A DNA stretch of 64,000 bases, taken from an uncultured Bacteroidales bacterium (lineage in GTDB: Bacteria > Bacteroidota > Bacteroidia > Bacteroidales > FEN-979). The notes below the pieces were generated by a model. It did no database searches, was not told the origin of the DNA, and was given only the letters and a program-made list of their open reading frames with translations. Position numbers and translations under genes: made by a program. Below, piece after piece: positions 18,528 through 63,349 of this stretch. Each line of letters starts with the position of its first letter. Within the stretch, counting starts at the first letter, position 1. The DNA lies in contig CAJBYO010000029.1 in the NCBI GenBank assembly GCA_903959905.1, forward strand, positions 78,972-142,971, given 5' to 3'.

Positions 18528-18658
18528 ATTTACGAATGTGGGATTTACGATTGCAGATTGAATTGAAAAAATTGACGATCTATGATTAGCCGTACTATCA
18601 ATCGTCAATCTGAAATCATTCAATTCAATCTGCAATCGTAAATCCCATCACCGTAAAT
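18528..18658. repeat. ~130 bp hairpin element, family C (heptamer-based)
   Basis: Perfect 29-bp inverted repeat 18539-18567/18619-18647 (TGGGATTTACGATTGCAGATTGAATTGAA); homologous copy at 62306-62437. Confidence 0.9.
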
Positions 18659-50135: not shown

Positions 50136-51158
50136 ATGAATAAAAACCGGCAGGATATCGACGAACTTTTACTGCTTCAGTATCTCCAGGGAAATTTGGA
50201 CAACGAACAAAGGTCCGAGGTTGAAGCGTGGCTGGAAGCAGACGGCGGGAACAGGAAGCACCTGGACTCGCTGGAGTCGCTGTGGCTTGAAACCGGGCGG
50301 ATTTCGCCGGCTCCGGTGGCTGTTGATGTGTCGGCTGCATGGGGCAGAATTTCAGAGAGGATTGCAAAGGAGGAGGGTCACACTGCCGGTAAACGGGTTC
50401 GCATGCCTTACTACCGGTTCCTTATGGGGGCCGCCGCCACGATTCTGGTACTGGCAGGCCTGTACGGCTTTTACAGACTGGTGATCAGCCCAGTAAAGCA
50501 GGTGCAAATGTTCAGCGGTGCCACGGTGAAACGCGATACGCTGCCGGATGGCTCGGAGGTTACCCTGAACAGTCATTCAACACTGGTATATTCCTCAAAC
50601 TATCAAAAGGGCAGGAGAGATGTAAAACTGACCGGGGAGGCCTATTTTGAAGTAACAAAGGATGCCGCCCACCCGTTTGTGGTTGATGCCGGGCCAGCCA
50701 GTGTAAAGGTACTTGGCACTTCATTCAGGGTTAAAACTGATGGAGGCAAAGGGATTGAAGTGACCGTTGCTGAAGGACAAGTCATGCTGTTTACAGTTGA
50801 TAAAAATACCGGTGATACTGCATCTGTGAAACTGAATGCAGGGGAGGCCGGCTATTTGCGGCCCGGAAGCAATCAGCCCGTACTTGATTCAACAGCAGTG
50901 GCGGATGGCCTGTTTTGGGCGAACCATGCACTTGACTTCAGGAGTATGGCACTTTCAGAAGTATTCACAATACTTAAAAAACACTATCAGGTCAACATTA
51001 CTGTCAGCGATCCCGCGATGAATGGATGCAGGCTCACGGCATCGTTCCAGGATGAACCCGCCGACCGGATCCTCCAGGTGATTGCAGGATCGTTCGGCTG
51101 GGAACTGCAGGTAAGCGGAAATGAATTTCATTTAACCGGGCATGGTTGCAGCAACTAG
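50136..51158 (+). CDS. FecR-family anti-sigma factor
   Basis: LPDGSEVTLN, L.GEAYFEV..D..HPF.V, VLGTSF and V.EG.V motifs. Confidence 0.93.
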   Translation: MNKNRQDIDELLLLQYLQGNLDNEQRSEVEAWLEADGGNRKHLDSLESLWLETGRISPAPVAVDVSAAWGRISERIAKEEGHTAGKRVRMPYYRFLMGAAATILVLAGLYGFYRLVISPVKQVQMFSGATVKRDTLPDGSEVTLNSHSTLVYSSNYQKGRRDVKLTGEAYFEVTKDAAHPFVVDAGPASVKVLGTSFRVKTDGGKGIEVTVAEGQVMLFTVDKNTGDTASVKLNAGEAGYLRPGSNQPVLDSTAVADGLFWANHALDFRSMALSEVFTILKKHYQVNITVSDPAMNGCRLTASFQDEPADRILQVIAGSFGWELQVSGNEFHLTGHGCSN

Positions 51159-52983
51159 GATTCTCAGGCATTTTTTCCTGCTGGCAGCCCTCATGCTTCC
51201 GGTCACTCATGCACTGTCACAGTCAAAATTCCTGGCCAGGAAAATTTCCCTTGATATCCCTTCATGCAGCCTCGAAGTGGCGCTTATTGAGATCGGGAAA
51301 GCGGCCAATTTCCGTTTTTCCTATGATGCCGGGATCTTACCGGGAAAGAGGCTTGTTCGGGTAAACGCCAGGAACATACCTGTTAACACCTTGCTCAGGG
51401 ATGTGCTGGGTAAGGATGTCGCTCCGAAAGAAATAGGTAACCATGTGATCCTTGTCAGGAACAATGCAGATACACGGGAGAAACAAGCCTTCCGGGAAAT
51501 TGTTGTCGCAGGATACATCCTTTCTTCCATCGATCGCAAACCCATTGTCAGCGCCACCGTCTATGAAATTGAGCAGAAAAAATCGGCAGTGACCAACGGA
51601 AAAGGGTATTATAAACTTGTCATCCCTTCCGGCAGGAAGGTAAGGGGCCTGGCCTTTTGCAAATCGGGGTATGCCGATACTGTAATTTTCATCAGGCAGT
51701 CTGCAGAGCAAAGGGTAGATGTGATCCTCAAGCCAGATCGCGACAGCCTCTCCAGGTTGAGCGCATTGCCGGGGGCGGTCGTTGCCAACCGCACCGACAG
51801 CATGAAGCTGGTAAACTGGCTTGTACCCGTTGAAGCGATGGTCAATTCTCAGAATCTTGAAGTTCGCACCGCAAGAACGTTCCAGGCATCTGTCATTCCT
51901 TACATTGGCACAAACTGGAAAGTTACCGGATCCATCACCAACAGGTTCTCCCTGAATCTCTTTGCCGGCTACACAGGCGGATTACAAGGTGTTGAAATTG
52001 GCGGTTTGCTGAATATCACCCGGAACACCATCAGCGGGTTGCAGATAGGTGGCCTTGGAAATATCATCGGGGGAAACGGGAAGGGCTGGCAGATCGGCGG
52101 ACTATTCAACTTTGACATGGGAAAATTTGCCGGGGTGCAGGCCGGCGGGCTGTTCAACTACAACCCCGATACCATCACGGGAGTTCAGCTGGGCGGGTTG
52201 ACCAACATCGTTACCGGTAAAGTGAGCGGGGTTCAGCTGGCTGGACTCACGAACATCGTTACCCACGACTGTGATGCCGTGCAGATCAGCGGCCTGTTTA
52301 ACCTGACCTTGAAGGATGTCAGGAAGGCTCAGGTATGCGGGCTTGTGAATTATGGGAACAATGTGGACGGGGTGCAGATTGCCGGGTTATTGAATATCGC
52401 CCGCAGGCATAGCAGCGGCCTGCAGCTGGCCGGGTTTGTGAATTATGCCACCATCCTTCACGGGTTGCAACTTGGGGTTGTCAATGTATCAAACACAGTA
52501 GAACGTGGCGTACCGATCGGACTGTTCAGTTATGTACAACATGGATATCACCTTTTTGAGGTGTCGGGGAATGAGATTTTCTACGGAAACCTGGCGTTTA
52601 AATCGGGAACGAGGACATTTTACAATTTCATACAGTCGGGGATAGGCAGCGACTACAAACTGCACGGATCCTATGGAATCGGGACGATCTTTACCCTGAC
52701 AAAAAAGCTGTCACTGAGCATTGACCTTTCAGCAGGGTTTGTATATCATCCGGTTGATACGGTGTATCATGGTTTGCTGTTAAAATGCGCCCCGGCGCTG
52801 GAGTACAGGTTTGCGAAGCATTTCGCGCTGTTTGCGGGACCGGCGTATAACTTTTTTCTCTTCTCGAAGGGGGCGGCGAGTGCAACGGAGCGGGGGCTTT
52901 CGTCGTATGATTTTTATTTTGAATCCACGCAGAATGCGTCGATGCAGATGTGGTTGGGGGGAGTGGCGGGGGTGAGGTTTTAA
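51142..52983 (+). CDS. STN + CarboxypepD_reg + Gly-rich (G.Q.GGL.N) repeat outer-membrane protein
   Basis: N-terminal STN-like domain (FRFSYD), carboxypeptidase-regulatory-like domain, about 12 15-aa repeats, C-terminal GVRF. Confidence 0.8.
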   Translation: MVAATRILRHFFLLAALMLPVTHALSQSKFLARKISLDIPSCSLEVALIEIGKAANFRFSYDAGILPGKRLVRVNARNIPVNTLLRDVLGKDVAPKEIGNHVILVRNNADTREKQAFREIVVAGYILSSIDRKPIVSATVYEIEQKKSAVTNGKGYYKLVIPSGRKVRGLAFCKSGYADTVIFIRQSAEQRVDVILKPDRDSLSRLSALPGAVVANRTDSMKLVNWLVPVEAMVNSQNLEVRTARTFQASVIPYIGTNWKVTGSITNRFSLNLFAGYTGGLQGVEIGGLLNITRNTISGLQIGGLGNIIGGNGKGWQIGGLFNFDMGKFAGVQAGGLFNYNPDTITGVQLGGLTNIVTGKVSGVQLAGLTNIVTHDCDAVQISGLFNLTLKDVRKAQVCGLVNYGNNVDGVQIAGLLNIARRHSSGLQLAGFVNYATILHGLQLGVVNVSNTVERGVPIGLFSYVQHGYHLFEVSGNEIFYGNLAFKSGTRTFYNFIQSGIGSDYKLHGSYGIGTIFTLTKKLSLSIDLSAGFVYHPVDTVYHGLLLKCAPALEYRFAKHFALFAGPAYNFFLFSKGAASATERGLSSYDFYFESTQNASMQMWLGGVAGVRF

Positions 52984-53012
52984 GTGTATCTCACGCAGAT
53001 GGCGCAGGAAAT

Positions 53013-53511
53013 TTCTCGCAGATTTTCGCGGATTACAGCGCAGATTTGGGCAGATTATAAATGATTATAGTTTGTTGGCGATGCGTTTGATGGCTGTTTG
53101 GTCTAACGACAGTGAGTTAAAATTGATCAGTAGGCCTAGCTTTTTGTCAAGAAGCTTCAGATAGGTGAGCAGTTGCTTGTGATGGATGTCCAACAGTGAC
53201 TCAACTGATTTAACTTCTACAATTACAAGGTCATTGACCAAAATATCAAGACGAAAGCCGAAATCAAACACGATATTCTCGTATTTCATAGGAATACCCA
53301 CCTGATTGCGTATCTGTAATCCTGAACTCACAAGTTCATACGACAAAGCGGCCTCATAAACCGATTCAAGCAACCCCGGCCCCAGGGCAGTGTGCACTTT
53401 AAAAGCACATCCCCTAATCACATAAGAAATATCATTCTCTCTCATAATCTACTTTTTATCATTTTTTAATCTGCCCCAATCTGCGCTTTAATCCGCGCAA
53501 ATCTGCGAGAA
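53013..53511. mobile_element. Filled family A element: 45-bp inverted arms enclosing the GxxExxY gene
   Basis: Arms 53013-53057 and 53467-53511 are 42/45 identical as inverted repeats; empty copies at 54832-54970 and 58325-58465. Confidence 0.7.
53065..53445 (-). CDS. GxxExxY protein (PD-(D/E)XK nuclease-like)
   Basis: LGPGLLESVY, RLDILV..LVIVEVKS, H.KQLLTYLK and GLLINF motifs. Confidence 0.93.
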   Translation of the reverse strand: MRENDISYVIRGCAFKVHTALGPGLLESVYEAALSYELVSSGLQIRNQVGIPMKYENIVFDFGFRLDILVNDLVIVEVKSVESLLDIHHKQLLTYLKLLDKKLGLLINFNSLSLDQTAIKRIANKL

Positions 53512-53580
53512 CATTTATACGCTTAATCACCTTTCCCCCCAAAAGGTAATACCCCCAACCAAAAATATTTTTCCCACCCG

Positions 53581-53609
53581 ATAGGGGTATCCCACCAAAT
53601 GGTTGTCAT
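53581..53609 (+). promoter_or_regulatory. Putative ECF-sigma promoter, copy 2
   Basis: ATAGGGGTATC-N10-GTTGTCAT, 25 nt upstream of ATG 53634. Confidence 0.7.
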
Positions 53610-53633
53610 CAGATAAACCAAACACAAGAAATA

Positions 53634-54815
53634 ATGAAACAGAAGTTCAAAATGATCATCATGCTTGCCTGGCTCTCAGCGATTGTATTGCCGGGAATGA
53701 CCCATGCCCAGGATTCAACGGAAATGAAAACCCGGACATTTCAGCTGGGGTTTGTTACCCCGGTCAGCTCCAACGGACTGAATTCATGGAATGTCGTAAA
53801 TAAATTCTCCATCAGCATGCTGGCCGGCTATTCGGGAGGTGTTGACGGGGTTGAATTCTCAGGACTCGGCAGCGTGTTAAATGGCAGCATGAACGGGGCC
53901 CAGTTTGCCGGACTCGGGAATGTCGTCTTCAGTGATGCCAAGGGCGTGCAGTTTGCAGGGCTCATGAATGTTGTGAAGGGGAATGTCACTGCCGCACAGT
54001 TTGCCGGATTGACCAATGTGAACACAGGCCGGGTAATCGGCTGTGAAATTTCCGGGTTGGCCAATGTCAACACCGATACCATGAGAGGGGCGCAACTTGC
54101 AGGAATGGTAAATTTCACCCGCGGGATGAAGGTCACCCAGGTGAGCGGGTTCGCGAATATTGTCACCGGAAACAACAAGGGTTTTCAGCTCGCCGGTTTT
54201 GTAAATGTATCAACCGGTCGGCAGGATGGATGCCAGGTGGCAGGTTTTGTCAATTATGCCGGAAAACTAAATGGCTTGCAGCTCGGGGTTTTCAACGTGA
54301 CCGACTCCCTGGAAAAAGGCATCCCGATCGGGTTTCTGAGCTTTGTGAAAAACGGTTATACCGCTTTTGAAGTGGGGGCTACGGAAACCCTGTATGGTGT
54401 AATGAGCTTTAAAACAGGGACAAAGCAGTTTTATAATATTCTCTCAGTGGGAGGGGGTTCCCGAAATGGGTATTCGCTCTTTGCCTGGGGATACGGGCTT
54501 GGTGCGTTTGTCCCGATCGGCAGCAAGGCAGGAATTTCCATCGACGGCATTTGTTACCAGGTAAATGAAGGGGAATGGTTCACCGACCGGATGAACCTGC
54601 TGAACAAACTCAATTTTACCGGTTCCTGGAAACTGGCGAACCACCTGGCTGTATTCGCAGGACTGTCGTGGAATGTAACCGTATCTGATATCACCGATGT
54701 ATATGGCGATAAGGTTGTGCCGAACATCGCACCCTGGTCGGTATTTGATGAAACCTATGACGGACATTTGAATGTGAAGATGTACCCGGGGTTTTCGGCG
54801 GGGATCAGGTTATAA
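53634..54815 (+). CDS. Gly-rich repeat surface protein, paralog of the C-terminal part of 51142-52983
   Basis: Shared RTFQ..NKFS..AGY.GG..GVE, G.Q.AG..N repeats, GIPIG..S and FK.GT..FYN motifs. Confidence 0.8.
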   Translation: MKQKFKMIIMLAWLSAIVLPGMTHAQDSTEMKTRTFQLGFVTPVSSNGLNSWNVVNKFSISMLAGYSGGVDGVEFSGLGSVLNGSMNGAQFAGLGNVVFSDAKGVQFAGLMNVVKGNVTAAQFAGLTNVNTGRVIGCEISGLANVNTDTMRGAQLAGMVNFTRGMKVTQVSGFANIVTGNNKGFQLAGFVNVSTGRQDGCQVAGFVNYAGKLNGLQLGVFNVTDSLEKGIPIGFLSFVKNGYTAFEVGATETLYGVMSFKTGTKQFYNILSVGGGSRNGYSLFAWGYGLGAFVPIGSKAGISIDGICYQVNEGEWFTDRMNLLNKLNFTGSWKLANHLAVFAGLSWNVTVSDITDVYGDKVVPNIAPWSVFDETYDGHLNVKMYPGFSAGIRL

Positions 54816-54831
54816 ATTCCCATCGGGTTGT

Positions 54832-54970
54832 TTCTCGCAGATTTTCGCGGATTACTGCGCAGATTTTAGCAGAAAAATGTTGTTCACTGCCGATGTTACA
54901 ACCTGGCAAATAATTATAAAAAAAATAATCTGCTTTAATCTGCGTCTTAATCTGCGAAAATCTGCGAGAA
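54832..54970. mobile_element. Empty (MITE-like) family A element
   Basis: TTCTCGCAGATTTTCGCGGATTACTGCGCAGATTTTAGCAGA..~50 nt..TAATCTGCTTTAATCTGCGTCTTAATCTGCGAAAATCTGCGAGAA. Confidence 0.75.
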
Positions 54971-55018
54971 AAAATAACCCTAACTATTCAACCCAAACCT
55001 AATCTTAAATCATCAACC

Positions 55019-55738
55019 ATGAAATCAAAAATTGTTATTATTATCCTGGTGGTCATTTCTGCCATCACAATATTCACTTCCTGCGAAAAAATAAAAGGCA
55101 AAGGAGAAGTTGTCACGGTGACCCGCACAACCGCGAATTATAATTCCATTGACCTTGCTATGTCGGCAACGGTTTATTTCACCCAGGGAACTGACTACAC
55201 ACTACAGCTCAGCGGCCAGGAGAATGTGCTGACCCAGGTTGTCACCGAAGTTGATGGCAATCAGCTGGTCATCCGGGTAAAGGGCGGCGTGATCCTTGGG
55301 AGTCATGAGCCCATAAAGGTCTATGTTTCTGCACCCTCCGTTTCAAAGCTTGCCGTGAGTGGGTCGGGCGACATTTTTATTGACAATGTGCTCACTGCGG
55401 AAAAACTTTCTCTCGACGTCAGCGGGAGCGGAAGCATCAACCTGGGCACTGTTGACCTCGGGCACCTTGTTTCGCACATCAGCGGATCGGGATCCATCCG
55501 GGCTGTTTCCGGCACAGCAACACGGGAAGACCTTAACATCAGCGGCAGCGGAACCGTTGACATTCGCAATGTCGAAGCAGCGACTGTTTATTCAACTACC
55601 AGCGGGTCGGGAGAGACTTATATCCATGCCACCACGCTGCTGGATGTGACCATTTCGGGGAGCGGGAATGTATGGTATTATGGAACGCCGGGGATTAATA
55701 CGCATATATCGGGGTCGGGGAACGTGAAGAGAATGTAA
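55019..55738 (+). CDS. Head GIN-domain (DUF2807) lipoprotein
   Basis: FTSC lipobox, IKGKG, repeated SGSG, Y.GTP. Confidence 0.88.
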   Translation: MKSKIVIIILVVISAITIFTSCEKIKGKGEVVTVTRTTANYNSIDLAMSATVYFTQGTDYTLQLSGQENVLTQVVTEVDGNQLVIRVKGGVILGSHEPIKVYVSAPSVSKLAVSGSGDIFIDNVLTAEKLSLDVSGSGSINLGTVDLGHLVSHISGSGSIRAVSGTATREDLNISGSGTVDIRNVEAATVYSTTSGSGETYIHATTLLDVTISGSGNVWYYGTPGINTHISGSGNVKRM

Positions 55739-55739
55739 A

Positions 55740-55823
55740 GTGACGGGTGACGGGTGACGGGTGACGCGTGACAGGTGACAGGTGACAGGTGACAGGTGAC
55801 AAGTGTCAAGTACCAGATGACGG
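55740..55823 (+). repeat. (GTGACRS) heptamer array, 9 units plus 3 degenerate
   Basis: Begins just after the TAA stop. Confidence 0.95.
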
Positions 55824-55832
55824 AAACCGATT

Positions 55833-55936
55833 CTGTCCGCCAGTCCGCCAGTCCGCCAGTCCGCTTGTCCGCTTGTCCGCTTGTCCGCCTGTTCACCTGC
55901 TCACCTGCTCACCCGCTCACCTGTTCACCCGCTCAC
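55833..55936 (-). repeat. 8-nt array (NNGTCCGC / CNGYTCAC) x13
   Basis: Reverse complement of the family at 4447-4534. Confidence 0.92.
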
Positions 55937-55964
55937 CAAGTTCTAACCCAAACAAACAAAATTC

Positions 55965-58307
55965 ATGCAAAAACTCAAATTGATCATACCACTTATCATT
56001 GTTTCAATATCAATCCAGGCACAAACACCGCTGCAGACAATTCGCGGAAGGGTGATTGATGCCGATTCAAAAACCGGGCTCCCCGGTGCGAATGTGGTTC
56101 TGCTTGATGTTGAGCCGATGACCGGCGCAAACACGGATGCAGATGGAAATTTTGTTTTAGCGAAAGTGCCGGTCGGGCGCCGGAGCCTGCACATCAGTTA
56201 TATGGGATACAAAACGGTGATCCGGCCGGAGATCATGGTAAGTTCGGGCAAGGAGGCATTTATCAACGTTGAACTTTCGGAAGATGCGGTTGCAGCAAAG
56301 GAGGTGGAGATCAAGGCAACTGTTGATAAAGACAAGCCTATTAATTCGATGGCCATGATCAGCGCGAGGTCATTCTCGGTGGAGGAGAGCAGGCGGTATG
56401 CAGGTTCTGCGGATGATCCCATGCGGGCAGTGTCAAACTTCGCAGGAGTGGCAGCGAGTCCCGACGTAAACTCCAATGAGATCGTGATCAGGGGCAATTC
56501 TCCCAAGGGATTGCTCTGGCGCGTTGACGGGGTTGACATTCCGAATCCCAACCATTACGCCTATGTTGGCACTTCAGGCGGGGGACTTACCATGTTCAGC
56601 AGCCAGGTGCTTGGCAACTCCGATTTCTATACTTCGGCATTTCCCGCTGAATACGGCAATGCGCTGTCGGGAGTTTTTGACATGCGTTTCCGGAACGGGA
56701 ACAATGCAAAGCATGAATTCGCGCTTCAGGTTGGCATACAGGGACTGGATCTTTCGGCGGAGGGGCCTCTTTCGTCAAAGAAACAGGGGTCCTACCTTTT
56801 CAACTACCGCTATTCCATCCTGGCCTTCCTGCAATATATTGATCCGGGGATGAAAAACAAGGTGCCATCTTACCAGGACCTCTCATTTAAAATAAACCTG
56901 CCCGCAGGGAAGGCCGGAACCTTTGCCCTGATCGGCATCGGCGGGATCTCCAGGTCGAAGTTTCAGCCCGAACTTGATTCATCGGCATGGAAAACCCTTG
57001 AAGACCGAACGAAGTCGCTGCTTAACAACAACATGGGAGCCCTGGCCATCACACACCAGGTGGCACTTTCACGTAAGAGTTACCTGCGCTCCTATGTTTC
57101 AGGCACCTATAACTCGATCGCATTTGAAAGCAGTTACGTGTTGCCTTCCTATACCCTTCAGCCGCAGCAAAACGTGCAGCAGGACAACTACCGTTTCTCG
57201 GCGAGTACAATGCTCAATACCCGGACGGGGCAACGACATACCAACCGGACGGGGTTAACCTATACGCGGCTTTTTTATAACAGCAACCTGCAGGCGCTGA
57301 ATCCGTTTACCGGGGTGTACGGACCGATTTACAAGGGGAAAGGCAATACGGACCTCATCCAGGCATTCAGTGAGTCAAAAGTTGAATTATCGCGGAAGGT
57401 GACGCTGAATGCCGGGCTGCATTTTCAGTATTTTATGCTGAACCGCCATTACGCAGCAGAACCACGTATCGGAATGCGCTGGCAGGTGTCGGCAAAACAT
57501 GCGCTGAGCCTGGGATACGGCAAACATTCACAGGTTGAGGATGTGGGATTGTATCTCACGGATGTAGTGGTCACGCCAGAGATGAATGTGCAGCCAAACC
57601 GGAAACTTGATTTCAGCCGTTCACATCACCTGGTATTGGGCTATGACTGGCTGATCAAAAGCGACCTGCGCTTCAGGGCAGAAGCCTATTACCAGTACTT
57701 GTATGATATCCCTGTGATGCCGGAAAACTACTATTCACTCATCAACAGCAGCGGCGGGTTTTACAATGATACCCTCGTAAACGGTGGCACCGGGCACAAT
57801 GCCGGCATTGACCTGACCTTTGAGAAATTTCTTTCTCACCAGTATTATTTCCTGGTTACTGTATCATTGTTTGATTCACGGTACACGGGAGGCGACGGGA
57901 TTGAACGCAACACGCGCTTCAACACCAATTATGTGGCAAATGTTCTTGCCGGGAAGGAGTGGACCATCCGGAAGAAGAACATCCTCGGCGTAAATTTCAA
58001 AGGTTCAGTTACCGGGGGTGAATGGTATGTGCCTGTTGACCTCGCAAGTTCCATTCAGCAGCACAGGGAAGTGCTGGATGACAAACAGGCCTACAGGCAG
58101 CAGCTGCCTTCCTTCTTTTACCTTGACCTGACACTGACATACCGTACAAACCACAGAAAATTCTCGGGTGTCTGGGCTATCCAGGTGAAGAACCTGCTTA
58201 ACCAGAAGCCTGTGAACGGTTATGTGTACAATGATTTTAACCAGTCGGTGGAGGAGGTGAAGTCGATGGGGATACTGCCGTTTATCAGTTACAAGATTGA
58301 ATTCTAA
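55965..58307 (+). CDS. TonB-dependent receptor with N-terminal CarboxypepD_reg domain
   Basis: RYAGS.DDP.R, NEIVIRGNSP, NPNH and FPAEYGNALSGVFD plug motifs; C-terminal YKIEF. Confidence 0.92.
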   Translation: MQKLKLIIPLIIVSISIQAQTPLQTIRGRVIDADSKTGLPGANVVLLDVEPMTGANTDADGNFVLAKVPVGRRSLHISYMGYKTVIRPEIMVSSGKEAFINVELSEDAVAAKEVEIKATVDKDKPINSMAMISARSFSVEESRRYAGSADDPMRAVSNFAGVAASPDVNSNEIVIRGNSPKGLLWRVDGVDIPNPNHYAYVGTSGGGLTMFSSQVLGNSDFYTSAFPAEYGNALSGVFDMRFRNGNNAKHEFALQVGIQGLDLSAEGPLSSKKQGSYLFNYRYSILAFLQYIDPGMKNKVPSYQDLSFKINLPAGKAGTFALIGIGGISRSKFQPELDSSAWKTLEDRTKSLLNNNMGALAITHQVALSRKSYLRSYVSGTYNSIAFESSYVLPSYTLQPQQNVQQDNYRFSASTMLNTRTGQRHTNRTGLTYTRLFYNSNLQALNPFTGVYGPIYKGKGNTDLIQAFSESKVELSRKVTLNAGLHFQYFMLNRHYAAEPRIGMRWQVSAKHALSLGYGKHSQVEDVGLYLTDVVVTPEMNVQPNRKLDFSRSHHLVLGYDWLIKSDLRFRAEAYYQYLYDIPVMPENYYSLINSSGGFYNDTLVNGGTGHNAGIDLTFEKFLSHQYYFLVTVSLFDSRYTGGDGIERNTRFNTNYVANVLAGKEWTIRKKNILGVNFKGSVTGGEWYVPVDLASSIQQHREVLDDKQAYRQQLPSFFYLDLTLTYRTNHRKFSGVWAIQVKNLLNQKPVNGYVYNDFNQSVEEVKSMGILPFISYKIEF

Positions 58308-58324
58308 TATTTCACGCAGAGTAT

Positions 58325-58465
58325 TTCTCGCAGATTTTCGCAGATTACAGCGCAGATTTTAGCAGATTATTTTTTGAATTTATTAACGCTGGGCAAACAG
58401 TTTGGAACTTCAAATAAATTTAATCTGCCTTAATCTGCGCTGTAATCTGCGAAAATCTGCGAGAA
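58325..58465. mobile_element. Empty (MITE-like) family A element
   Basis: Arms 58325-58369 and 58421-58465 are 42/45 identical as inverted repeats, with a 51-nt spacer. Confidence 0.78.
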
Positions 58466-58472
58466 CTTTTTT

Positions 58473-59492
58473 TTAATCTTTACAACACCTCACCGAGAAA
58501 CCATTCGTTTTAAAGTTGAAATTCCTTGTTATCTCTGCATTGTTTGCATCCAGCACAAAGTTCCATGCATTAACCGACGCTGTATCCGAAGAAGACCACA
58601 TGTAGGCTACGTTTCCGATGGAATAATAGGTGCCGTAATTGATCCGGTAACCTCCCGGGATGGCGTTGAACCCGCTGGTGTTTGTTGCATCTGTATTTGG
58701 TGCATACCAGAGCCCGGTTCCGCCTTCGATGGTGCCTGTTGCCTTCAGTTTGCCACCAGCCGTTGAGTTGCCCCCAAGGAATGCCCCAAGGGTAGCCCAT
58801 TCTCCATCGGACGGTATATGCCAGCCGGTTGGACAAAGGCCCCGGCTGTCGTTCAAAGCATGCCAGTTATACAGTCCACCGTAAGTTGAAATGTTTGCAT
58901 CAAGGTTGTCGTAGGAACAGTAAGCCCCGGTTGCGAGGGTTTTCCATGCGTTATCACCAGTTACCTTGGCGATGGCATCGCCATTGCGGTAATGTGTCAC
59001 CCTGAGATTTGAACCAAGCCATTTCTGGGTTCCGATTGAAACGACAGTATAAATGTTATCGTCAACATCTTTCACCGTGACCGGGATGATCTTTCCGGTC
59101 CTGAATGAAATTAAATTCCCGTATGCTGTGCCGGCACTGTTTACCGCATAGGCTTTGACATAATATACGGTGTCGGCAAGCAGATTCGTCATGGTGCCGG
59201 TAAATGAACCCGTTCCTGTTCCGGCAGCTGTTTTCATATCTGCGGTTGTAGGTTTGTCATACAGGCTCCAGCAGATGCCTCTCCCGGTTACGGCTGCCCC
59301 TCCGTCGGAGGAGATTGTGCCGCCACTCTCCGCGCTGTTTGTGGTAATGGAGGCAGCAGGACTGGTGGAGAGAACTGACAGGGTTGGTGCCGGAACCGGT
59401 GCAGGTTCTTCCTTTTTTGAGCATCCGCCTGCGATGATGATGGCCAGGATTCCGGAAAAAAGGAACATCCGGGTGATGAAAAAGATTTTCAT
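58473..59492 (-). CDS. FN3 + FISUMP (Fibrobacter succinogenes major paralogous) domain lipoprotein
   Basis: AGGC lipobox; YYVKAYAVN..GT.YG, IGTQ.W..NL, YG.LYNW, CPTGWHIPS..EW and GFSVRC motifs. Confidence 0.9.
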   Translation of the reverse strand: MKIFFITRMFLFSGILAIIIAGGCSKKEEPAPVPAPTLSVLSTSPAASITTNSAESGGTISSDGGAAVTGRGICWSLYDKPTTADMKTAAGTGTGSFTGTMTNLLADTVYYVKAYAVNSAGTAYGNLISFRTGKIIPVTVKDVDDNIYTVVSIGTQKWLGSNLRVTHYRNGDAIAKVTGDNAWKTLATGAYCSYDNLDANISTYGGLYNWHALNDSRGLCPTGWHIPSDGEWATLGAFLGGNSTAGGKLKATGTIEGGTGLWYAPNTDATNTSGFNAIPGGYRINYGTYYSIGNVAYMWSSSDTASVNAWNFVLDANNAEITRNFNFKTNGFSVRCCKD

Positions 59493-59838: not shown

Positions 59839-62301
59839 ATGTTTGAAAAAATTATCATACATACAAGTTCGCCCGAGCGGCCCGCTTCAGTCGGAACTGC
59901 TGCCGGTCAGAGGGATAATCAGGATTCAGGCCCGGGGATGAATGACCGGATCAGGAAACTCCGGAAAATCTCAACAGAGGCGGTTCCTTCGCTTTCAATT
60001 GAACGCGCACTGCATGAAACTGTCTTTTACCGGGAGCATTACGGCACCTGTTCCATCCCTGTTCTGCGTGCCCTGACTTTCCTGGATCACTGCCGGAAAA
60101 AGACCATCTACCTTGGTGAAGGGGAACTGATCGTTGGTGAACGCGGACCGGCACCCAAGGTGGTTCCCACCTTCCCGGAACTGACCTGTCACAGTGTTGA
60201 GGATTTTCATGTGCTCAACAGCCGCGACATGCAGCGTTATACCATCAGCCAGGAAGATATTGACCAGTATGAAAGGGAGGTTATCCCTTACTGGAAGGGA
60301 AAAACCCAGCGGGAGCGTATATTCGGCCATGTTCCCCCGGAATGGAAAGCGGCCTATGAGGCAGGCCTATTTACCGAGTTCATGGAGCAGCGGGCCCCCG
60401 GTCATACAGCACTCGACGGTAAGATTTACCGGAAGGGCATGCTTGATTTTAAAAAGGAGATTGCAGGGAAAATAGCCGCATTGGATTTTCTGAATGATCC
60501 GGAAGCGACAGATAAGTCGGAACAGTGGAAAGCCATGGATATTGCCTGCGATGCGGTGATCCTGTTTGCCGAACGGCATGCCGCACTGGCAGATGAACTT
60601 GCCCTTGTTGAACGTGACCCGTTGCGTGCTGCCGAACTGAAGGAGATTGCAAGTGTGTGCAGGCACGTTCCGGCCCATGCACCGCGGAATTTCCGGGAAG
60701 CGATCCAGATGTACTGGTTTGTACACCTGGGGACCATCACAGAACTTAACGGCTGGGATGCCATGAACCCGGGCCATTTTGACCAGCACCTCACCCCGTT
60801 TTATGAGCGGGAAGTTGCCGCCGGAACACTCACAAGGGATAAGGCAAAAGAACTGATTTCCTGTTTTTGGATCAAAGTTAACAATCATCCTGCCCCGCCA
60901 AAGGTGGGTGTTACCGCCCGGGAGAGTGGTACGTACAATGATTTTACCAATATCAACATCGGCGGGCTAAAGGGCGACGGCAGCGACGGTACCAGCGAGA
61001 TTTCCTATATCATGCTGGAAGTGATCGAGGAACTGCATATTCTCCAGCCCGGGAATTCCGTGCATATCAGCGCGAAAACGCCTGATAAGTTTCTTCACGC
61101 GGCAACACGTGTAATCAGGCAGGGTCATGGATACCCTTCGGTGTTCAATCCCGATGTTTATATACTGGAACTGCTTCGCCAGGGAAAATCGCTGCAGGAT
61201 GCACGCGAAGGCGGCTGCAGTGGCTGTATTGAGGTAGGTGCCTTTGGAAAGGAGGCTTTCCTGCTTACCGGGTATCTCAATGTACCAAAGATCCTGGAAA
61301 TCACCCTTAACAATGGTGTTGACCCGGTAACCGGTAAATGTGTCGGATTGAAAACAGGCGATCCCAGGTCTTTTGACAGTTTTGAAAAGTTGTATGAGGC
61401 ATTTATTCAGCAACTCAATTTTGTAGTTGATATAAAAATGCGGGTAAGCAACTACATTGACCGGATGTTTGCCAAATATGCCCCTGCCCCCTTTCTTTCT
61501 GTGGTCATTGATGATTGCATCGTGAACGGGAAAGACTATTACGACGGTGGGCCGCGGTACAACACCAGTTACATCCAGTGCTGCGGCCTCAGTACGGTTA
61601 CCGACAGCCTCTCTGCGATCAGAAAGCATGTATTTGAAGACAAAGCTTTCAGCATGGACAGGCTGCTGAATGCTGTGCTCAATAACTTTGAGGGGGAAAC
61701 CGTTATGCGGCAGCGCATCATGAACCGTACTCCTTTTTTCGGGAATGATGATGATTATGCCGATGAAATTGCTGTAAAGGTTTACAACGACCTTGTTGCT
61801 GCCATCGACGGCAAGCCCAACATCAAACCCGGCGGCAAATACCACCTGAACATGCTGTCAACCACATGCCATGTCTATTTTGGCAAGGTGATGGGTGCCA
61901 CCCCGAACGGCAGGCTGGCCGGAAAATCAATCTCCGACGGCACCTCACCATCCCATGGGGCGGATACCTGCGGGCCTTCGGCCGTGGTCAAATCGCTGGC
62001 AAAGCTTGACCATGTAAAATCAGGTGGCACACTCTTAAATCAACGTTTCCTGCCAAGTCTGCTTAAAAAGGAGGAGGATATTAAAAAACTCGGGCAGCTG
62101 ATCAGGAGCTATTTTACATTGGGAGGCCACCATATTCAGTTCAATATTGTGGATACCGCCACATTGCTGGCGGCACAGGCATGTCCCGAAGATTACCGCG
62201 ACCTGCTTGTACGCATGGCCGGATACAGCGATTATTTCAACGACATGAACGCAGATTTACAACAGGAAGTAATAGAAAGGACTGAAAATGATATGCTATA
62301 A
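59839..62301 (+). CDS. hypD: Glycyl radical enzyme, trans-4-hydroxy-L-proline dehydratase (start 59839 or 59938)
   Basis: EQRAPGHT, WDAMNPG, ESGTYNDF, SGCIE, LTGY, STTCH and VRMAGYS, matching the HypD active-site set as recalled. Confidence 0.8.
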   Translation: MFEKIIIHTSSPERPASVGTAAGQRDNQDSGPGMNDRIRKLRKISTEAVPSLSIERALHETVFYREHYGTCSIPVLRALTFLDHCRKKTIYLGEGELIVGERGPAPKVVPTFPELTCHSVEDFHVLNSRDMQRYTISQEDIDQYEREVIPYWKGKTQRERIFGHVPPEWKAAYEAGLFTEFMEQRAPGHTALDGKIYRKGMLDFKKEIAGKIAALDFLNDPEATDKSEQWKAMDIACDAVILFAERHAALADELALVERDPLRAAELKEIASVCRHVPAHAPRNFREAIQMYWFVHLGTITELNGWDAMNPGHFDQHLTPFYEREVAAGTLTRDKAKELISCFWIKVNNHPAPPKVGVTARESGTYNDFTNINIGGLKGDGSDGTSEISYIMLEVIEELHILQPGNSVHISAKTPDKFLHAATRVIRQGHGYPSVFNPDVYILELLRQGKSLQDAREGGCSGCIEVGAFGKEAFLLTGYLNVPKILEITLNNGVDPVTGKCVGLKTGDPRSFDSFEKLYEAFIQQLNFVVDIKMRVSNYIDRMFAKYAPAPFLSVVIDDCIVNGKDYYDGGPRYNTSYIQCCGLSTVTDSLSAIRKHVFEDKAFSMDRLLNAVLNNFEGETVMRQRIMNRTPFFGNDDDYADEIAVKVYNDLVAAIDGKPNIKPGGKYHLNMLSTTCHVYFGKVMGATPNGRLAGKSISDGTSPSHGADTCGPSAVVKSLAKLDHVKSGGTLLNQRFLPSLLKKEEDIKKLGQLIRSYFTLGGHHIQFNIVDTATLLAAQACPEDYRDLLVRMAGYSDYFNDMNADLQQEVIERTENDML

Positions 62302-62305
62302 GGAT

Positions 62306-62437
62306 AATTTCAGATTGGACGATTTTAGAATGACGATTGAATTGAACAATTGACGATGTACGATTGGTAGCGCTGCTAATCGTAAATCGTCAATTTTTTC
62401 AATTCAATCTGAAATCGTTAATCCCATAATCGTAAAT
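62306..62437. repeat. Hairpin element, family C, second copy
   Basis: GCTAATCGTAAATCGTCAATTTTTTCAATTCAATCTGAAATCGTTAATCCCA resembles the reverse complement of 18539-18590. Confidence 0.88.
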
Positions 62438-62440
62438 AAA

Positions 62441-63349
62441 TTGACATCCGGTCTTATTTTTGATATCAAACGTTACGCCATCAACGACGGTCCCGGCATT
62501 CGGGTGGTTGTCTTTTTTAAAGGTTGTAACCTGCATTGCGCCTGGTGCCACAACCCTGAGGGGATGGCAGCAGTACCTGAGAAAATGTTCACTCCTTCAA
62601 AGTGCATCAGCTGCGGAACATGTGTCAGTGCATGTCCTGAGGAGGCCATTACGCTCACCGCCCATGGCATTGTCACCAATACCGACCTGTGTAGGAGTTG
62701 CGGTATTTGCGCCGAAGTTTGTCCCACCATGGCCATAGAGATGTCTGGCAGGGAAATGACGGTTCCTGAAATCATGGATGTTATTGAAAAGGAGCGGATA
62801 TTTTTTGAGCAGTCGGGTGGCGGGGTAACATTTTCCGGCGGGGAGCCGATGATACAGTCGAAGGTGTTGATAGAATTGCTTGATGAATGTGGCAAGCGCG
62901 GCATCCACCGGGCGGTTGACACCGCCGGGCATGTTAACACGGATGTTCTGCTGGAGGTTGCGCAAAGAACCGACCTGTTCCTGTATGACCTTAAGGTGAT
63001 GGACCCGGAATTACATGCAAAATGGACAGGATTAACCAACGATAAAATCCTCACGAACCTCAGGGCCGTAGCCAGAACCGGAGTGCCGGTCATTATCCGT
63101 ATCCCGCTGGTGGGCGGGGTGAATGACCATGAAGACAACATCAGGCAGACTGCCGAATTCCTGTATTCTATTCCGATGAAAGGAGCAGAGGTGCACCTGT
63201 TGCCTTATCATGCCATCGCCCGGCACAAATATGAGAAATTAAGCCGGCCTGAAGAATTTGAGTTGATGGAAGAGCCTGGCCCGGGGCGTCTTGAAGAAGT
63301 TGTTGCATTGTTCAGGGGGTATGGGATGAAGGTGCAGGTGGGAGGATAG
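62441..63349 (+). CDS. Glycyl-radical enzyme activating protein (radical SAM + ferredoxin insert)
   Basis: DGPGIR..F.KGCNLHCAWCHNPE, two CxxCxxCxxxC motifs, GVTFSGGEP. Confidence 0.95.
   Translation: MTSGLIFDIKRYAINDGPGIRVVVFFKGCNLHCAWCHNPEGMAAVPEKMFTPSKCISCGTCVSACPEEAITLTAHGIVTNTDLCRSCGICAEVCPTMAIEMSGREMTVPEIMDVIEKERIFFEQSGGGVTFSGGEPMIQSKVLIELLDECGKRGIHRAVDTAGHVNTDVLLEVAQRTDLFLYDLKVMDPELHAKWTGLTNDKILTNLRAVARTGVPVIIRIPLVGGVNDHEDNIRQTAEFLYSIPMKGAEVHLLPYHAIARHKYEKLSRPEEFELMEEPGPGRLEEVVALFRGYGMKVQVGG

Follow-up and report, generated by a model that had tools for sequence, protein, structure and literature searches.

A GxxExxY nuclease gene between inverted repeat arrays, and its gene-less copies, in an uncultured Bacteroidales bacterium: a possible REPIN/RAYT-like system

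Results

The locus and the gene-bearing element

The stretch of DNA analysed here, which we call the window, comprises 64,000 nucleotides of the genome of an uncultured Bacteroidales bacterium (assembly GCA_903959905.1, here G000; contig CAJBYO010000029.1). In it a small GxxExxY gene lies between two inverted arms and is antisense to the plus-strand open reading frames (ORFs) 51142-52983, 53634-54815, 55019-55738 and 55965-58307. The features are listed below.

52991..53012, plus strand: further end units, degenerate, on the outer side of the left arm, TCACGCAGA..GCGCAGGAAAT, from reading of the sequence
53013..53057, plus strand: left arm, starting TTCTCGCAGATTTTCGC, with four inward-reading units (CGCAGAT, CGCGGAT, CGCAGAT, GGCAGAT)
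53065..53445, minus strand: gene for a GxxExxY PD-(D/E)XK nuclease of 126 aa with intact catalytic residues (PF13366 and TIGR04256)
53467..53511, minus strand: right arm, an inverted version of the left-arm array
54832..54970, no strand assigned: gene-less doublet, copy 2, with arms at about 54832-54873 and 54926-54970 and an unrelated loop
58325..58465, no strand assigned: gene-less doublet, copy 3, with arms at 58325-58369 and 58421-58465

The arms of the gene-bearing copy are 45 nt long with a complementarity of 0.93 (42/45), as the initial annotation had described, and a wider arm pair of 60 nt (53002-53061 and 53463-53522) is 85% complementary. The whole gene-bearing unit, 53013-53511, measures 499 bp. 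The short GCAGATT-type units that the arms were said to be built of were found again as CGCAGAT/CGCGGAT at a spacing of 10-12 nt, each arm being an array of three to five short direct units and not a short palindrome. The TCACGCAGA prefix reported for copies 1 and 3 is present on both and is a degenerate extra end unit; partial TTCTCGCAGA and TTCACGCAGA units similar to 52991-53012 lie outside many copies genome-wide. The elements do begin shortly past stop codons, at distances of 16-29 nt (the stops end at 52983, 54815 and 58307). When folded as RNA, the whole gene-bearing element reaches -173 kcal/mol (z -7.5), and none of the shuffled sequences folded equally well. Searching 52800-58700 against Rfam gave no family at its gathering score; the best match, mir-399 (33.9 bits; gathering score 57), was rejected as the likeness of a generic hairpin.

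The gene-bearing element contains no DDE, HUH, serine or tyrosine recombinase and no partner gene besides GxxExxY. The earlier statement that DDE, HUH and tyrosine enzymes are missing from the element thus holds, and an IS200-like Y1 transposase (Y1_Tnp) with its own short palindromes is found only elsewhere in the genome, at G000:C55:416-868.

The GxxExxY protein

The ORF at 53065-53445 matches PF13366 (E=1.9e-38, 131.9 bits, cut-off 22) and TIGR04256 'GxxExxY protein' (E=1.9e-40, 137.9 bits, cut-off 35), and the residues of the GxxExxY motif and of D...ExK (G24, E27, Y30, D67, E77 and K79) are invariant across 39 aligned homologues. These matches agree with the original assignment to a PD-(D/E)XK family of unknown function, which is how the function of PF13366/TIGR04256 is listed in the available text of PMC3424549. 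A weak likeness to Cas4 (Pfam Cas_Cas4, E=0.0017, below the cut-off; PADLOC Cas4, E=7e-6) is confined to the nuclease core, about residues 35-106, and beyond it no defence-system model matched the element. A sequence and profile search of solved structures gave nothing usable (best E=0.41), and a search of the ESM Atlas returned PF13366 clusters only.

The G000 assembly has five PF13366 matches in all. Three full-length GxxExxY paralogues occur in this genome, each with different arms, and the two paralogues in the alignment are 37-46% identical to the window's protein. Of 121 genomes sampled from the window's phylum, 69 have a member of the family (PF13366/TIGR04256), which also turned up in named records of at least eight further phyla.

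Gene-less copies in the genome

Both arms recur downstream in register, at 54832-54970 and 58325-58465, as the initial annotation had noticed. Copy 2 starts 16 nt past the stop of ORF 53634-54815 and folds at -66.4 kcal/mol (z -12.2), and copy 3, flanked by two convergent ORFs (55965-58307, plus; 58473-59492, minus), folds at -80.0 kcal/mol (z -14.1); no shuffle of either was as good. In the relative G015 an arm of this family follows the gene orthologous to the one before copy 2.

The proposal that gene-bearing and gene-less copies form one dispersed family was supported by the genome-wide tally, which gave 36 pairs of arms and 7 arms on their own, with a gene in a single pair (53013-53511). 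The near-constant length of 139-141 bp attributed to the elements applies inside the window but not genome-wide, where arm pairs measure 83-182 nt and the gene-bearing copy 499 nt. The arms stay near one consensus while the loops are unrelated: all loops differ except for two local duplications, so nothing shows that whole doublets were copied recently. No loop resembles the interior of the filled copy, and no GxxExxY remnant was recognisable in 141 hairpin loops. The doublets are extragenic, with two possible exceptions within an ORF according to crude gene calls. At the ends of the 36 copies no direct repeat or target-site duplication was visible, and no mobility event was seen.

It is the arm sequence, and not the hairpin pairing, that is conserved. 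The two arms of an element have a similarity of 38.7/45, as against 38.35/45 for the arms of other elements (808 of 5000 permutations gave a value as high); compensatory pairing was rejected on the grounds that an element's own arms are no more alike than those of different elements. The doublets lie in 24 tandem, 8 divergent and 4 convergent contexts. The background has a similar split of 694, 312 and 168, and the doublets are therefore not tied to gene 3' ends. A terminator role was rejected on the same comparison.

In total 217 arrays were found in this 4.9-Mb genome. Two further array families, CACTAAG/CACGGAG and CGCAGAG, have about 12 doublets each, and no cognate gene for either was found in the assembly, which consists of 104 contigs and in which two gene fragments sit at contig ends. 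Genes of the four-helix-bundle (S23p) family also lie in the same kind of arms in G000, made of different units; since these non-nuclease genes share the architecture, the architecture alone needs no nuclease. Small selfish-looking genes in similar hairpin arrays lie beside toxin-antitoxin pairs at G000:C56:13.5-17.3 kb. An rRNA match was found neither in 20 GxxExxY loci nor in 20 four-helix-bundle loci, the sole match being one tRNA; the G000 assembly has no 23S (LSU) rRNA gene.

Orthologous loci and related genomes

The comparison of orthologous loci that had been suggested at the outset places the gene in a shared intergenic space. After the same upstream gene, G012 has an intact GxxExxY gene (50% identical), G015 a 92-aa frame with 3 stops, and G003 a 25-aa remnant inside the same arms; the gene is absent at the orthologous site in G013, and in two other cases the contig ends there. 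In a second orthologous trio, located after a comM-like gene, the codon-position identities are 0.80-0.87, 0.93-0.95 and 0.54-0.63, and the three species have one and the same 20-nt arm end. By these sequence comparisons the GxxExxY gene is vertically inherited and under purifying selection. The gene had been described as interrupting a gene cluster in antisense; its antisense orientation stands, but a recent interrupting insertion does not, the gene being an old, vertically inherited resident.

Terminal 20-mers of the arm (at most 2 mismatches) number 106 in G000, 64% of them exact, and 23 in G003 (22% exact), 13 in G004 (23%), 35 in G015 (20%) and 18 in G006 (39%), a comparison of one genome with four in which the search pattern was taken from the one. 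An intact GxxExxY gene inside GCAGATT arms was not found in G003, G004 or G015. Relatives without an intact cognate gene still keep arms, fewer and more degenerate ones, and at G003:C189 the same arms surround a different, non-coding cargo of 430 nt.

The gene-less doublets could be followed at 16 informative loci. At six of the doublet sites of G000, other species carry the same family (7 of the 16 loci), at five loci the same intergenic site carries a different unit family in another species, and at three there is no element, in one case where two operon genes abut. In four public DNA runs the contigs break at the arms, with joints that reflect the repeats, and none joins across the gene; short contigs of a second study cover the gene start and the right arm, which are unchanged. 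A look for public RNA runs containing the stretch gave none.

A heptamer in the arms of GxxExxY genes across phyla

CGCAGAT, the core of the arms, is one form of the heptamer CRCNRAK. Around 39 GxxExxY genes (flanks of 150 nt) this word occurs inward at 17.3 per kb and outward at 5.7, compared with 1.6-2.1 per kb around 30 four-helix-bundle genes and a background of 1.7. The word was first defined by eye, on loci that include those of the inverted-repeat comparison that follows. The flank-to-flank inverted-repeat score was at least 30 at 22 of 29 loci of the window's phylum and at 0 of 58 offset controls. In an out-of-sample set for which the motif was fixed beforehand (76 usable loci from at least eight other phyla), at least three inward matches were present at 63 loci, against 14 of 145 offset controls, and the inverted-repeat score reached 30 or more at 56, against 0 of 145. 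With 22/29 and 56/76 loci at this score, it is not the case that GxxExxY homologues generally lack such arms, an outcome which the initial annotation had named as counting against its reading.

Triple arrays reach a median of 17.5 per genome where the gene is present (68 genomes) and of 2 where it is not (52 genomes), and at least ten arrays are present in 40/68 and 3/52, respectively. The Spearman correlation is 0.65. This comparison carries no correction for relatedness, and each count comes partly from the genes' own flanks. A reversed-pattern control was near 0 in every genome but one (29 forward in G149), and five further named genomes from four phyla have 28-166 arrays each, with controls of 0-2.

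The arm unit type follows the GxxExxY phylogeny. On the protein tree there are 41 changes of unit label, while shuffled labels give a mean of 61.3 and a minimum of 53, so that the suggested covariation of arm sequence and protein is found; the nearest proteins, one of them from a Rhodohalobacter halophilus record, share the TTCTCGCAGATTTTCGC arm end.

Discussion

We tentatively propose that 53013-53511 may be the gene-bearing copy in a REPIN/RAYT-like system, and that its cognate enzyme, encoded by a single-copy gene, would be a PD-(D/E)XK nuclease and not an HUH transposase. The protein would recognise the array sequence, chiefly the outer TTCTCGCAGATTTTCGC, and cutting followed by repair or copying from other copies could keep the arm population uniform, with the protein perhaps adding copies occasionally. 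The loops would be free to drift, the gene-less copies would depend on the one gene in trans, and decay of the gene would be expected to let the arm population shrink and degenerate.

In the available text of 10.1101/2021.07.10.451892, the REPIN/RAYT system consists of a single-copy gene flanked by its own inverted repeat and of dozens of extragenic doublets, each about 100 nt long, whose spacer is less conserved than the repeats. Different species have the gene in a shared intergenic space, its inheritance is mostly vertical, several families can occur per genome, and after gene loss the repeat population shrinks and drifts from the master sequence. By analogy, the pattern described here resembles these known REP/RAYT repeat systems of Pseudomonas, Enterobacteria and Neisseria in its single-copy gene within its own inverted repeat, its dispersed extragenic doublets, its shared intergenic site, and the presence in one genome of several families, each with its own gene. 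The decay of repeats on gene loss may have a counterpart in the 13-35 arm termini (20-39% exact) of the relatives against 106 (64% exact) here, one genome being compared with four by a pattern from the one. The enzyme is different, PF13366 PD-(D/E)XK here and HUH/Y1 transposase there. In addition, the arms here are arrays of three to five direct units whereas a REP is a short imperfect palindrome, the spacers are wholly unrelated so that whole-doublet copying is not visible, and G000 has an ordinary Y1 transposase with its own palindromes besides.

The initial annotation had suggested an autonomous/non-autonomous pair analogous to RAYT/REP or IS/MITE. The first half of this analogy fits in several properties (single-copy gene in its own inverted repeat, extragenic doublets of about 100 nt, poorly conserved spacers). 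MITEs and their parent insertion sequences similarly have short, non-coding, dispersed intergenic copies with conserved inverted ends and a rarer coding copy, but here neither a DDE, serine or tyrosine enzyme nor a target-site duplication is seen, and what lies inside the short copies bears no relation to the coding copy, which is itself fixed at an orthologous site. In eukaryotes, foldback (FB) transposons have long inverted arms of short tandem sub-repeats and variable loops and are mostly non-coding. The resemblance to them is of form only, given the different scale and no known relation. By sequence the nearest family beyond PF13366 is that of the Cas4/RecB-like PD-(D/E)XK nucleases, from which the protein described here differs in being much smaller (126 aa) and not in a cas locus. 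In Cas4, the trimming of single-stranded ends goes together with recognition of a short DNA word, the PAM.

An unlikely alternative explanation is a host regulatory system in which the arrays are operator-like sites and GxxExxY is a DNA- or RNA-binding or processing factor at gene ends (as a roadblock, a terminator aid or in mRNA end processing), with the arrays at its own gene serving autoregulation and all copies kept by host selection instead of copying. Such a system would fit a vertically inherited gene under purifying selection, the conservation of arm sequence in place of pairing, the closeness of the elements to stop codons, and the six doublet sites with the same family in other species; the five loci with a different unit family look as if the site needs some such element. 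However, the doublet contexts are near background, so there is no tie to gene 3' ends, and near-identity over 20-45 nt at 36 sites points to common descent or conversion and not to independent selection. Decaying arms are moreover kept in relatives without the gene, and three of the 16 sites, one of them between abutting operon genes, do without the element.

It is less likely still that the elements are passengers at the RNA level, in the manner of the 23S rRNA intervening sequences (IVS) with an S23p ORF known from Leptospira and Coxiella. The arms would then form a long double-stranded stem cut by RNase III, a selfish ORF would be tolerated in transcription units, and the gene-less hairpins would be what remains after loss of the ORF. 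The architecture equals that of the Coxiella IVS as given in the available text of PMC4990558 (an element of about 430 nt with an ORF inside a 28-bp terminal stem, excised by RNase III), both kinds of element having a length of about 430-500 nt and terminal inverted repeats that form a stem around a small ORF, and the tendency of the ORF to decay within retained arms described there is seen here in G003. The stems are very stable, and the S23p-family genes of G000 have the same kind of arms, but the pairing is without compensatory maintenance, 0 of 141 loops have a GxxExxY remnant and none is like the filled copy's interior, and none of the 20 GxxExxY and 20 four-helix-bundle loci is in an rRNA gene. 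The phylum-spanning, family-specific CRCNRAK word is also left unexplained by the need for a stem alone. Unlike an IVS, the element lies between protein genes and not in helix 25 or 45 of 23S rRNA, its ORF encodes GxxExxY and not a four-helix-bundle protein, its arms are unit arrays with a family-specific word, and it has many gene-less copies.

The original idea that the nuclease cuts or homes at empty hairpins, into which its gene is then copied, is very improbable, as is its extension to a transposase that moves the whole element. Homing would be expected to produce several filled copies with one ORF; in fact only 1 of 36 cognate sites is filled and no loop is like the interior of that copy, even though the catalytic residues are intact, the arms look like multi-binding-site transposon ends, and the arms at G003:C189 hold a different cargo. 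The three full-length paralogues, each in different arms, also set the system apart from a homing endonuclease gene. Three to four species have the gene at an orthologous site, no target-site duplication was visible, and no empty allele appeared in the contigs of the four public runs, which break at the arms. We give least credence to a toxin or defence module, with the nuclease as toxin or immune effector and the arrays as an RNA or DNA antidote or decoy, since the weak Cas4 likeness, the hairpin-array genes beside toxin-antitoxin pairs and the four-helix-bundle relatives reported inside cas loci in the available text of PMC3936711 are set against an element with no partner gene and no other defence-model match, and against dozens of dispersed arrays that would be unexpected for a cis-encoded antidote.

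Returning to the REPIN/RAYT-like reading, we would extend it beyond this genome with somewhat more reserve. GxxExxY (PF13366) could represent a second class of repeat-associated nuclease, independent of HUH and spread over many phyla of bacteria and possibly certain archaea. Every such gene would lie between its own CRCNRAK-type inverted arrays and sustain gene-less doublets throughout the genome. Four-helix-bundle (S23p/Avd-like, PF05635) genes might do so in parallel with other words, both together making up much structured intergenic repeat DNA, with rRNA intervening sequences as the special case of an insertion in rRNA. We found no description in the literature of GxxExxY genes between repeat arrays; supplementary tables may hold some.

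If the proposal is correct, the CRCNRAK arrays would be a specific, testable DNA partner that makes the widespread PF13366/TIGR04256 family tractable, and a small sequence-reading nuclease would become available for study. A second, independent instance of the REPIN/RAYT way of life would help to separate its general traits from the peculiarities of HUH enzymes, and a large share of the intergenic hairpin repeats of this genome would be explained. Such repeats break assemblies and confuse annotation.

A minor observation concerns the strand on which the doublets fold. For 18 of 23 tandem contexts the antisense RNA gives the better fold of the two strands (Wilcoxon p about 0.02).

The GxxExxY element and its arms

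The GxxExxY gene of the window and the repeats around it are best read, tentatively, as a REPIN/RAYT-like system, in which a nuclease gene is kept vertically and dispersed gene-less repeats depend on it. The window holds the following members.

53065-53445, minus strand: GxxExxY ORF of 126 aa (PF13366, E=1.9e-38; TIGR04256, E=1.9e-40)
53013-53057 and 53467-53511: arms of the gene-bearing element, complementary at 42/45 positions
54832-54970 and 58325-58465: gene-less copies with the same two arms, enclosing short unrelated loops

As the initial annotation described, the gene lies between inverted arms and runs against a series of ORFs on the plus strand. Each window copy starts just past a stop codon, 16-29 nt downstream. 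The arms are made up of CGCAGAT/CGCGGAT units in runs, at a spacing of 10-12 nt. The host cluster (50136-58307) opens with a FecR-type anti-sigma gene, after which come surface and TonB-receptor-like genes with CarboxypepD_reg, Plug, DUF2807 and LA_2272-like repeat domains; two of its genes, 53634-54815 and 55019-55738, are absent between the flanking genes in the same-genus relatives G003, G012 and G013.

The window corresponds to G000:C29:78972-142971. A search of its genome (G000; 4.9 Mb, 104 contigs) with one arm returned 36 pairs and 7 lone arms. The length of 139-141 nt noted in the initial annotation holds for the gene-less copies of the window but not genome-wide, where pairs span 83-182 nt. 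Its proposal that the nuclease homes into empty hairpins was not borne out: the first window copy is the only one of the 36 pairs to hold a gene, and no loop among the doublets (gene-less pairs) resembles its interior. These loops are unrelated in both length and sequence. A loop is common to two members in only two cases, both the product of local duplication over distances of 0.7 and 2.3 kb. No recognisable GxxExxY remnant was found in 141 hairpin loops of G000. The two arms of an element match each other at 38.7/45 positions, against 38.35/45 between elements (808 of 5000 permutations reach the observed value); an element's own arms are thus no more alike than foreign ones, which argues that arm sequence is kept, and not pairing as such. 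Conservation is strictest in the outer TTCTCGCAGATTTTCGC.

Inheritance of the gene and of the gene-less copies

Six same-genus relatives retain the upstream gene, with proteins 58-70% identical. In G012 it is followed directly by an intact GxxExxY gene (50% identical) with diverged GCAGA-type arms, in G015 by a 92-aa frame with three stops, and in G003 by a 25-aa remnant with arms of the same family around it. At this position no GxxExxY gene was found in G013, only two tandem heptamer runs, and the contigs of G006 and G014 end within tandem units. The GxxExxY gene of the window is an old resident of its site, inherited vertically, and in relatives the gene decays within retained arms.

A second GxxExxY family follows a comM-like gene in three species, with proteins 80-83% identical. 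Its identities at the three codon positions (0.80-0.87, 0.93-0.95 and 0.54-0.63) indicate purifying selection, and its 20-nt arm end is identical in 3/3 species while third codon positions agree at only 54-63%; gene and arm ends are both under constraint. In the GxxExxY family of G000:C45:57065-57490 (locus L002, with orthologues L058 and L059) the arm units extend into the start of the longest ORF, where CACGAAGG and CACAAAGG units encode the residues MHEGAQRE; the opposite arm directly follows the stop codon, so that the gene is enclosed without a spacer.

The gene-less copies were compared at 20 GCAGATT-arm sites from three relatives, 16 of which could be placed in G000 by flanking genes (L075, L081, L082 and L089 lacked synteny and were left out). 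The same family occupies the same site in 7/16 cases, representing six G000 sites. Five of the G000 sites carry a hairpin from another unit family, among them window 62292-62441, where a hairpin of ..ATTGGACGATTTTAGAATGACGATTGAATTG.. units follows a pyruvate-formate-lyase-like gene and the orthologous site of G004 carries a GCAGATT-family hairpin. The element is displaced by one gene in one case and absent from G000 in three, once between two abutting operon genes. Orthologous copies retain their outer ~20 nt, differ in their inner units and have unalignable loops, and several gene-less copies in relatives are half hairpins. One relative has GCAGATT-family arms around ~430 nt with no GxxExxY gene (G003:C189:27879-28393); this interior contains further nested palindromes of small size, along with a tandem GCTGGAGGCAATTCA run.

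Terminal 20-mer of the arm, pattern taken from G000, at most two mismatches allowed
Genome; matches; exact
G000; 106; 64%
G003; 23; 22%
G004; 13; 23%
G015; 35; 20%
G006; 18; 39%
G012; 0 (arms diverged)

Searches of G003, G004 and G015 yielded no intact GxxExxY gene enclosed by GCAGATT arms. A population pattern of this kind has been described for REPINs after loss of the RAYT (10.1101/2021.07.10.451892); in the present case the comparison is of a single genome, G000, with four relatives, and the search pattern comes from G000 itself.

A family-wide word and its possible dependence on the gene

The arms of GxxExxY genes have in common a core, CRCNRAK, oriented inward on either side of the gene. 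Around 39 GxxExxY genes the flank density of the word is 17.3/kb inward and 5.7 outward, compared with 1.6-2.1 around 30 four-helix-bundle (PF05635) genes and a background of 1.7; at least three inward words were present at 35/39 GxxExxY loci and at 1/30 four-helix-bundle loci. Flank-to-flank inverted-repeat scores of at least 30 were reached at 22/29 loci of the window's phylum and at 0/58 offset controls. Because inspection by eye of these initial loci had suggested the word, a fresh set of 80 loci from named genomes was picked by protein similarity alone, of which 76 were usable. It includes Cyanobacteriota, Acidobacteriota, Planctomycetota, Chloroflexota, Pseudomonadota, Verrucomicrobiota, Myxococcota, Ignavibacteriota and one Methanosarcinales record. 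At least three inward words were found at 63/76 of these loci (71/76 in either orientation) versus 14/145 offset controls, and scores of at least 30 at 56/76 versus 0/145. Arms are therefore general among GxxExxY homologues, and the word is specific to this family across phyla.

Arrays and gene also occur together. Among 120 genomes of the window's phylum, the median number of triple CRCNRAK arrays was 17.5 in the 68 with PF13366 and 2 in the 52 where it was not found; at least ten such arrays were present in 40/68 and 3/52, respectively. Array number follows gene copy number (Spearman 0.65); kinship is ignored throughout this comparison, and the genes' own flanks add to the counts. A reversed-pattern control gave counts near zero with one exception, G149 (29 forward). 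Gene-less arrays dominate some genomes (379 arrays to 2 genes in G073; 311 to 4 matches in G000). Five further genomes, including Chloroflexia, Deltaproteobacteria and Planctomycetia records, had 28-166 arrays and control counts of 0-2.

Arm sequence co-varies with GxxExxY phylogeny, a point that the initial annotation had proposed to test: unit type changes 41 times on the protein tree (shuffle mean 61.3, minimum 53) and the last base of the unit 4 times (shuffle mean 12.5), although linked inheritance alone would also produce such a match. The proteins nearest to that of the window (56-71% identical; Ignavibacteriota and Bacteroidota records) have ..GAT units, and the arm end of the 61% identical Rhodohalobacter halophilus protein is TTCTCGCAGATTTTCGC, as in the window.

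The protein and the nature of the element

Residues G24, E27, Y30, D67, E77 and K79 are invariant across 39 homologues, so the window's protein likely has an active PD-(D/E)XK site. No solved structure matched it by sequence. The only other family it resembled was Cas4, by a PADLOC match (E=7e-6) and a sub-threshold Pfam match (E=0.0017). Cas4 is a PAM-reading enzyme. That the element is a toxin or defence module is very improbable. The PD-(D/E)XK survey lists the function of PF13366 as unknown (PMC3424549). Searches of the main texts of papers turned up no description of a GxxExxY gene flanked by repeat arrays.

In the REPIN/RAYT-like reading the protein would read the arrays and cut, and the ensuing repair or copying would keep the arms uniform and add copies. 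The likeness lies in a cognate repeat that is inverted on both sides of a single gene. Membership of the RAYT family itself is ruled out because its defining HUH/Y1 enzyme and palindromic REP are lacking. For the form of this element, eukaryotic foldback elements offer a comparison.

That the arrays are instead regulatory sites of the host we regard as unlikely. The elements lie very close to stop codons, though their contexts (24 tandem, 8 divergent, 4 convergent) resemble the background (694, 312 and 168), so that gene 3′ ends are not their only setting.

Less likely again is an RNA-level passenger akin to an intervening sequence. RNA fold energies are -66.4 and -80 kcal/mol for the two gene-less window elements (z -12 and -14) and -173 kcal/mol for the entire gene-bearing element (z -7.5), with no shuffle as low in any case. 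As a separate observation, in 18/23 tandem-context doublets of G000 RNA from the strand antisense to the flanking genes is more stably folded than sense RNA (mean advantage 2.6 kcal/mol, Wilcoxon p ~0.02), which points to a preferred doublet orientation relative to transcription. The Coxiella IVS, as PMC4990558 describes it, has a stem-plus-ORF anatomy and is excised by RNase III. The window element is alike in shape, but by location it is not an rRNA intervening sequence.

Other array and hairpin families

G000 has five matches to PF13366, of which three are full-length; the remaining two are fragments located at the ends of contigs, and one of them contains a stop codon. A further eight matches are to PF05635, the four-helix-bundle '23S rRNA intervening sequence protein' (S23p family). 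Nearly all of the genes in both groups are bounded by inverted arms of short tandem units, each with its own different unit. Four-helix-bundle genes, present in 92/121 genomes of the window's phylum, show the same architecture (loci L094-L123 and the G000 loci L006-L013), with scores of at least 30 at 18/30 loci versus 0/59 controls; the units, of xxAAGT, GAGT or TAGT type, are distinct from CRCNRAK. Such genes have been noted within cas loci (PMC3936711).

A general scan of G000 gave more than 10 hairpin families with short-unit arms. GxxExxY-type arrays number 217, with 61 in inward-facing pairs (~30 CGCAGAT, 12 CACTAAG/CACGGAG, ~12 CGCAGAG and ~6 CACAGAG). Further features of this kind in the window are:

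18539-18647 and 23662-23785: short-unit hairpins, units TGGGATTTACGATTGCAGATTGAATTGAA; GAATATTGAATATTGATCAACGAATTTTGAA, arms of 29-31 nt, 97-100% complementary
55739-55940: intergenic unit runs between ORFs 55019-55738 and 55965-58307

The latter run from GTGACGG/GTGACAG heptamers through GTCCGCC-type octamers to CTCACC-type units, the unit types that form the arms of the four-helix-bundle genes at G000:C77:56775-57074 and G000:C29:232204-232515. Summed contig depth in metagenome runs was 4158 in this bin, against ~24, and such units are therefore common in that community.

At G000:C56:13500-17300, three toxin-antitoxin-type pairs (ParE with a small partner, HigB with an HTH, and a HigB-like protein with an HTH) and a four-helix-bundle gene are each set apart by ACGAATATGCGAAT-type hairpins, an arrangement that recalls an integron cassette array. 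An IS200-like Y1 transposase (G000:C55:416-868; PF01797, E=2.9e-25) has CAGCCCTGAAAGGGCG palindromes on its flanks and looks like an ordinary RAYT/REP pair within the same genome; its palindrome also occurs near the orthologous locus in G015.
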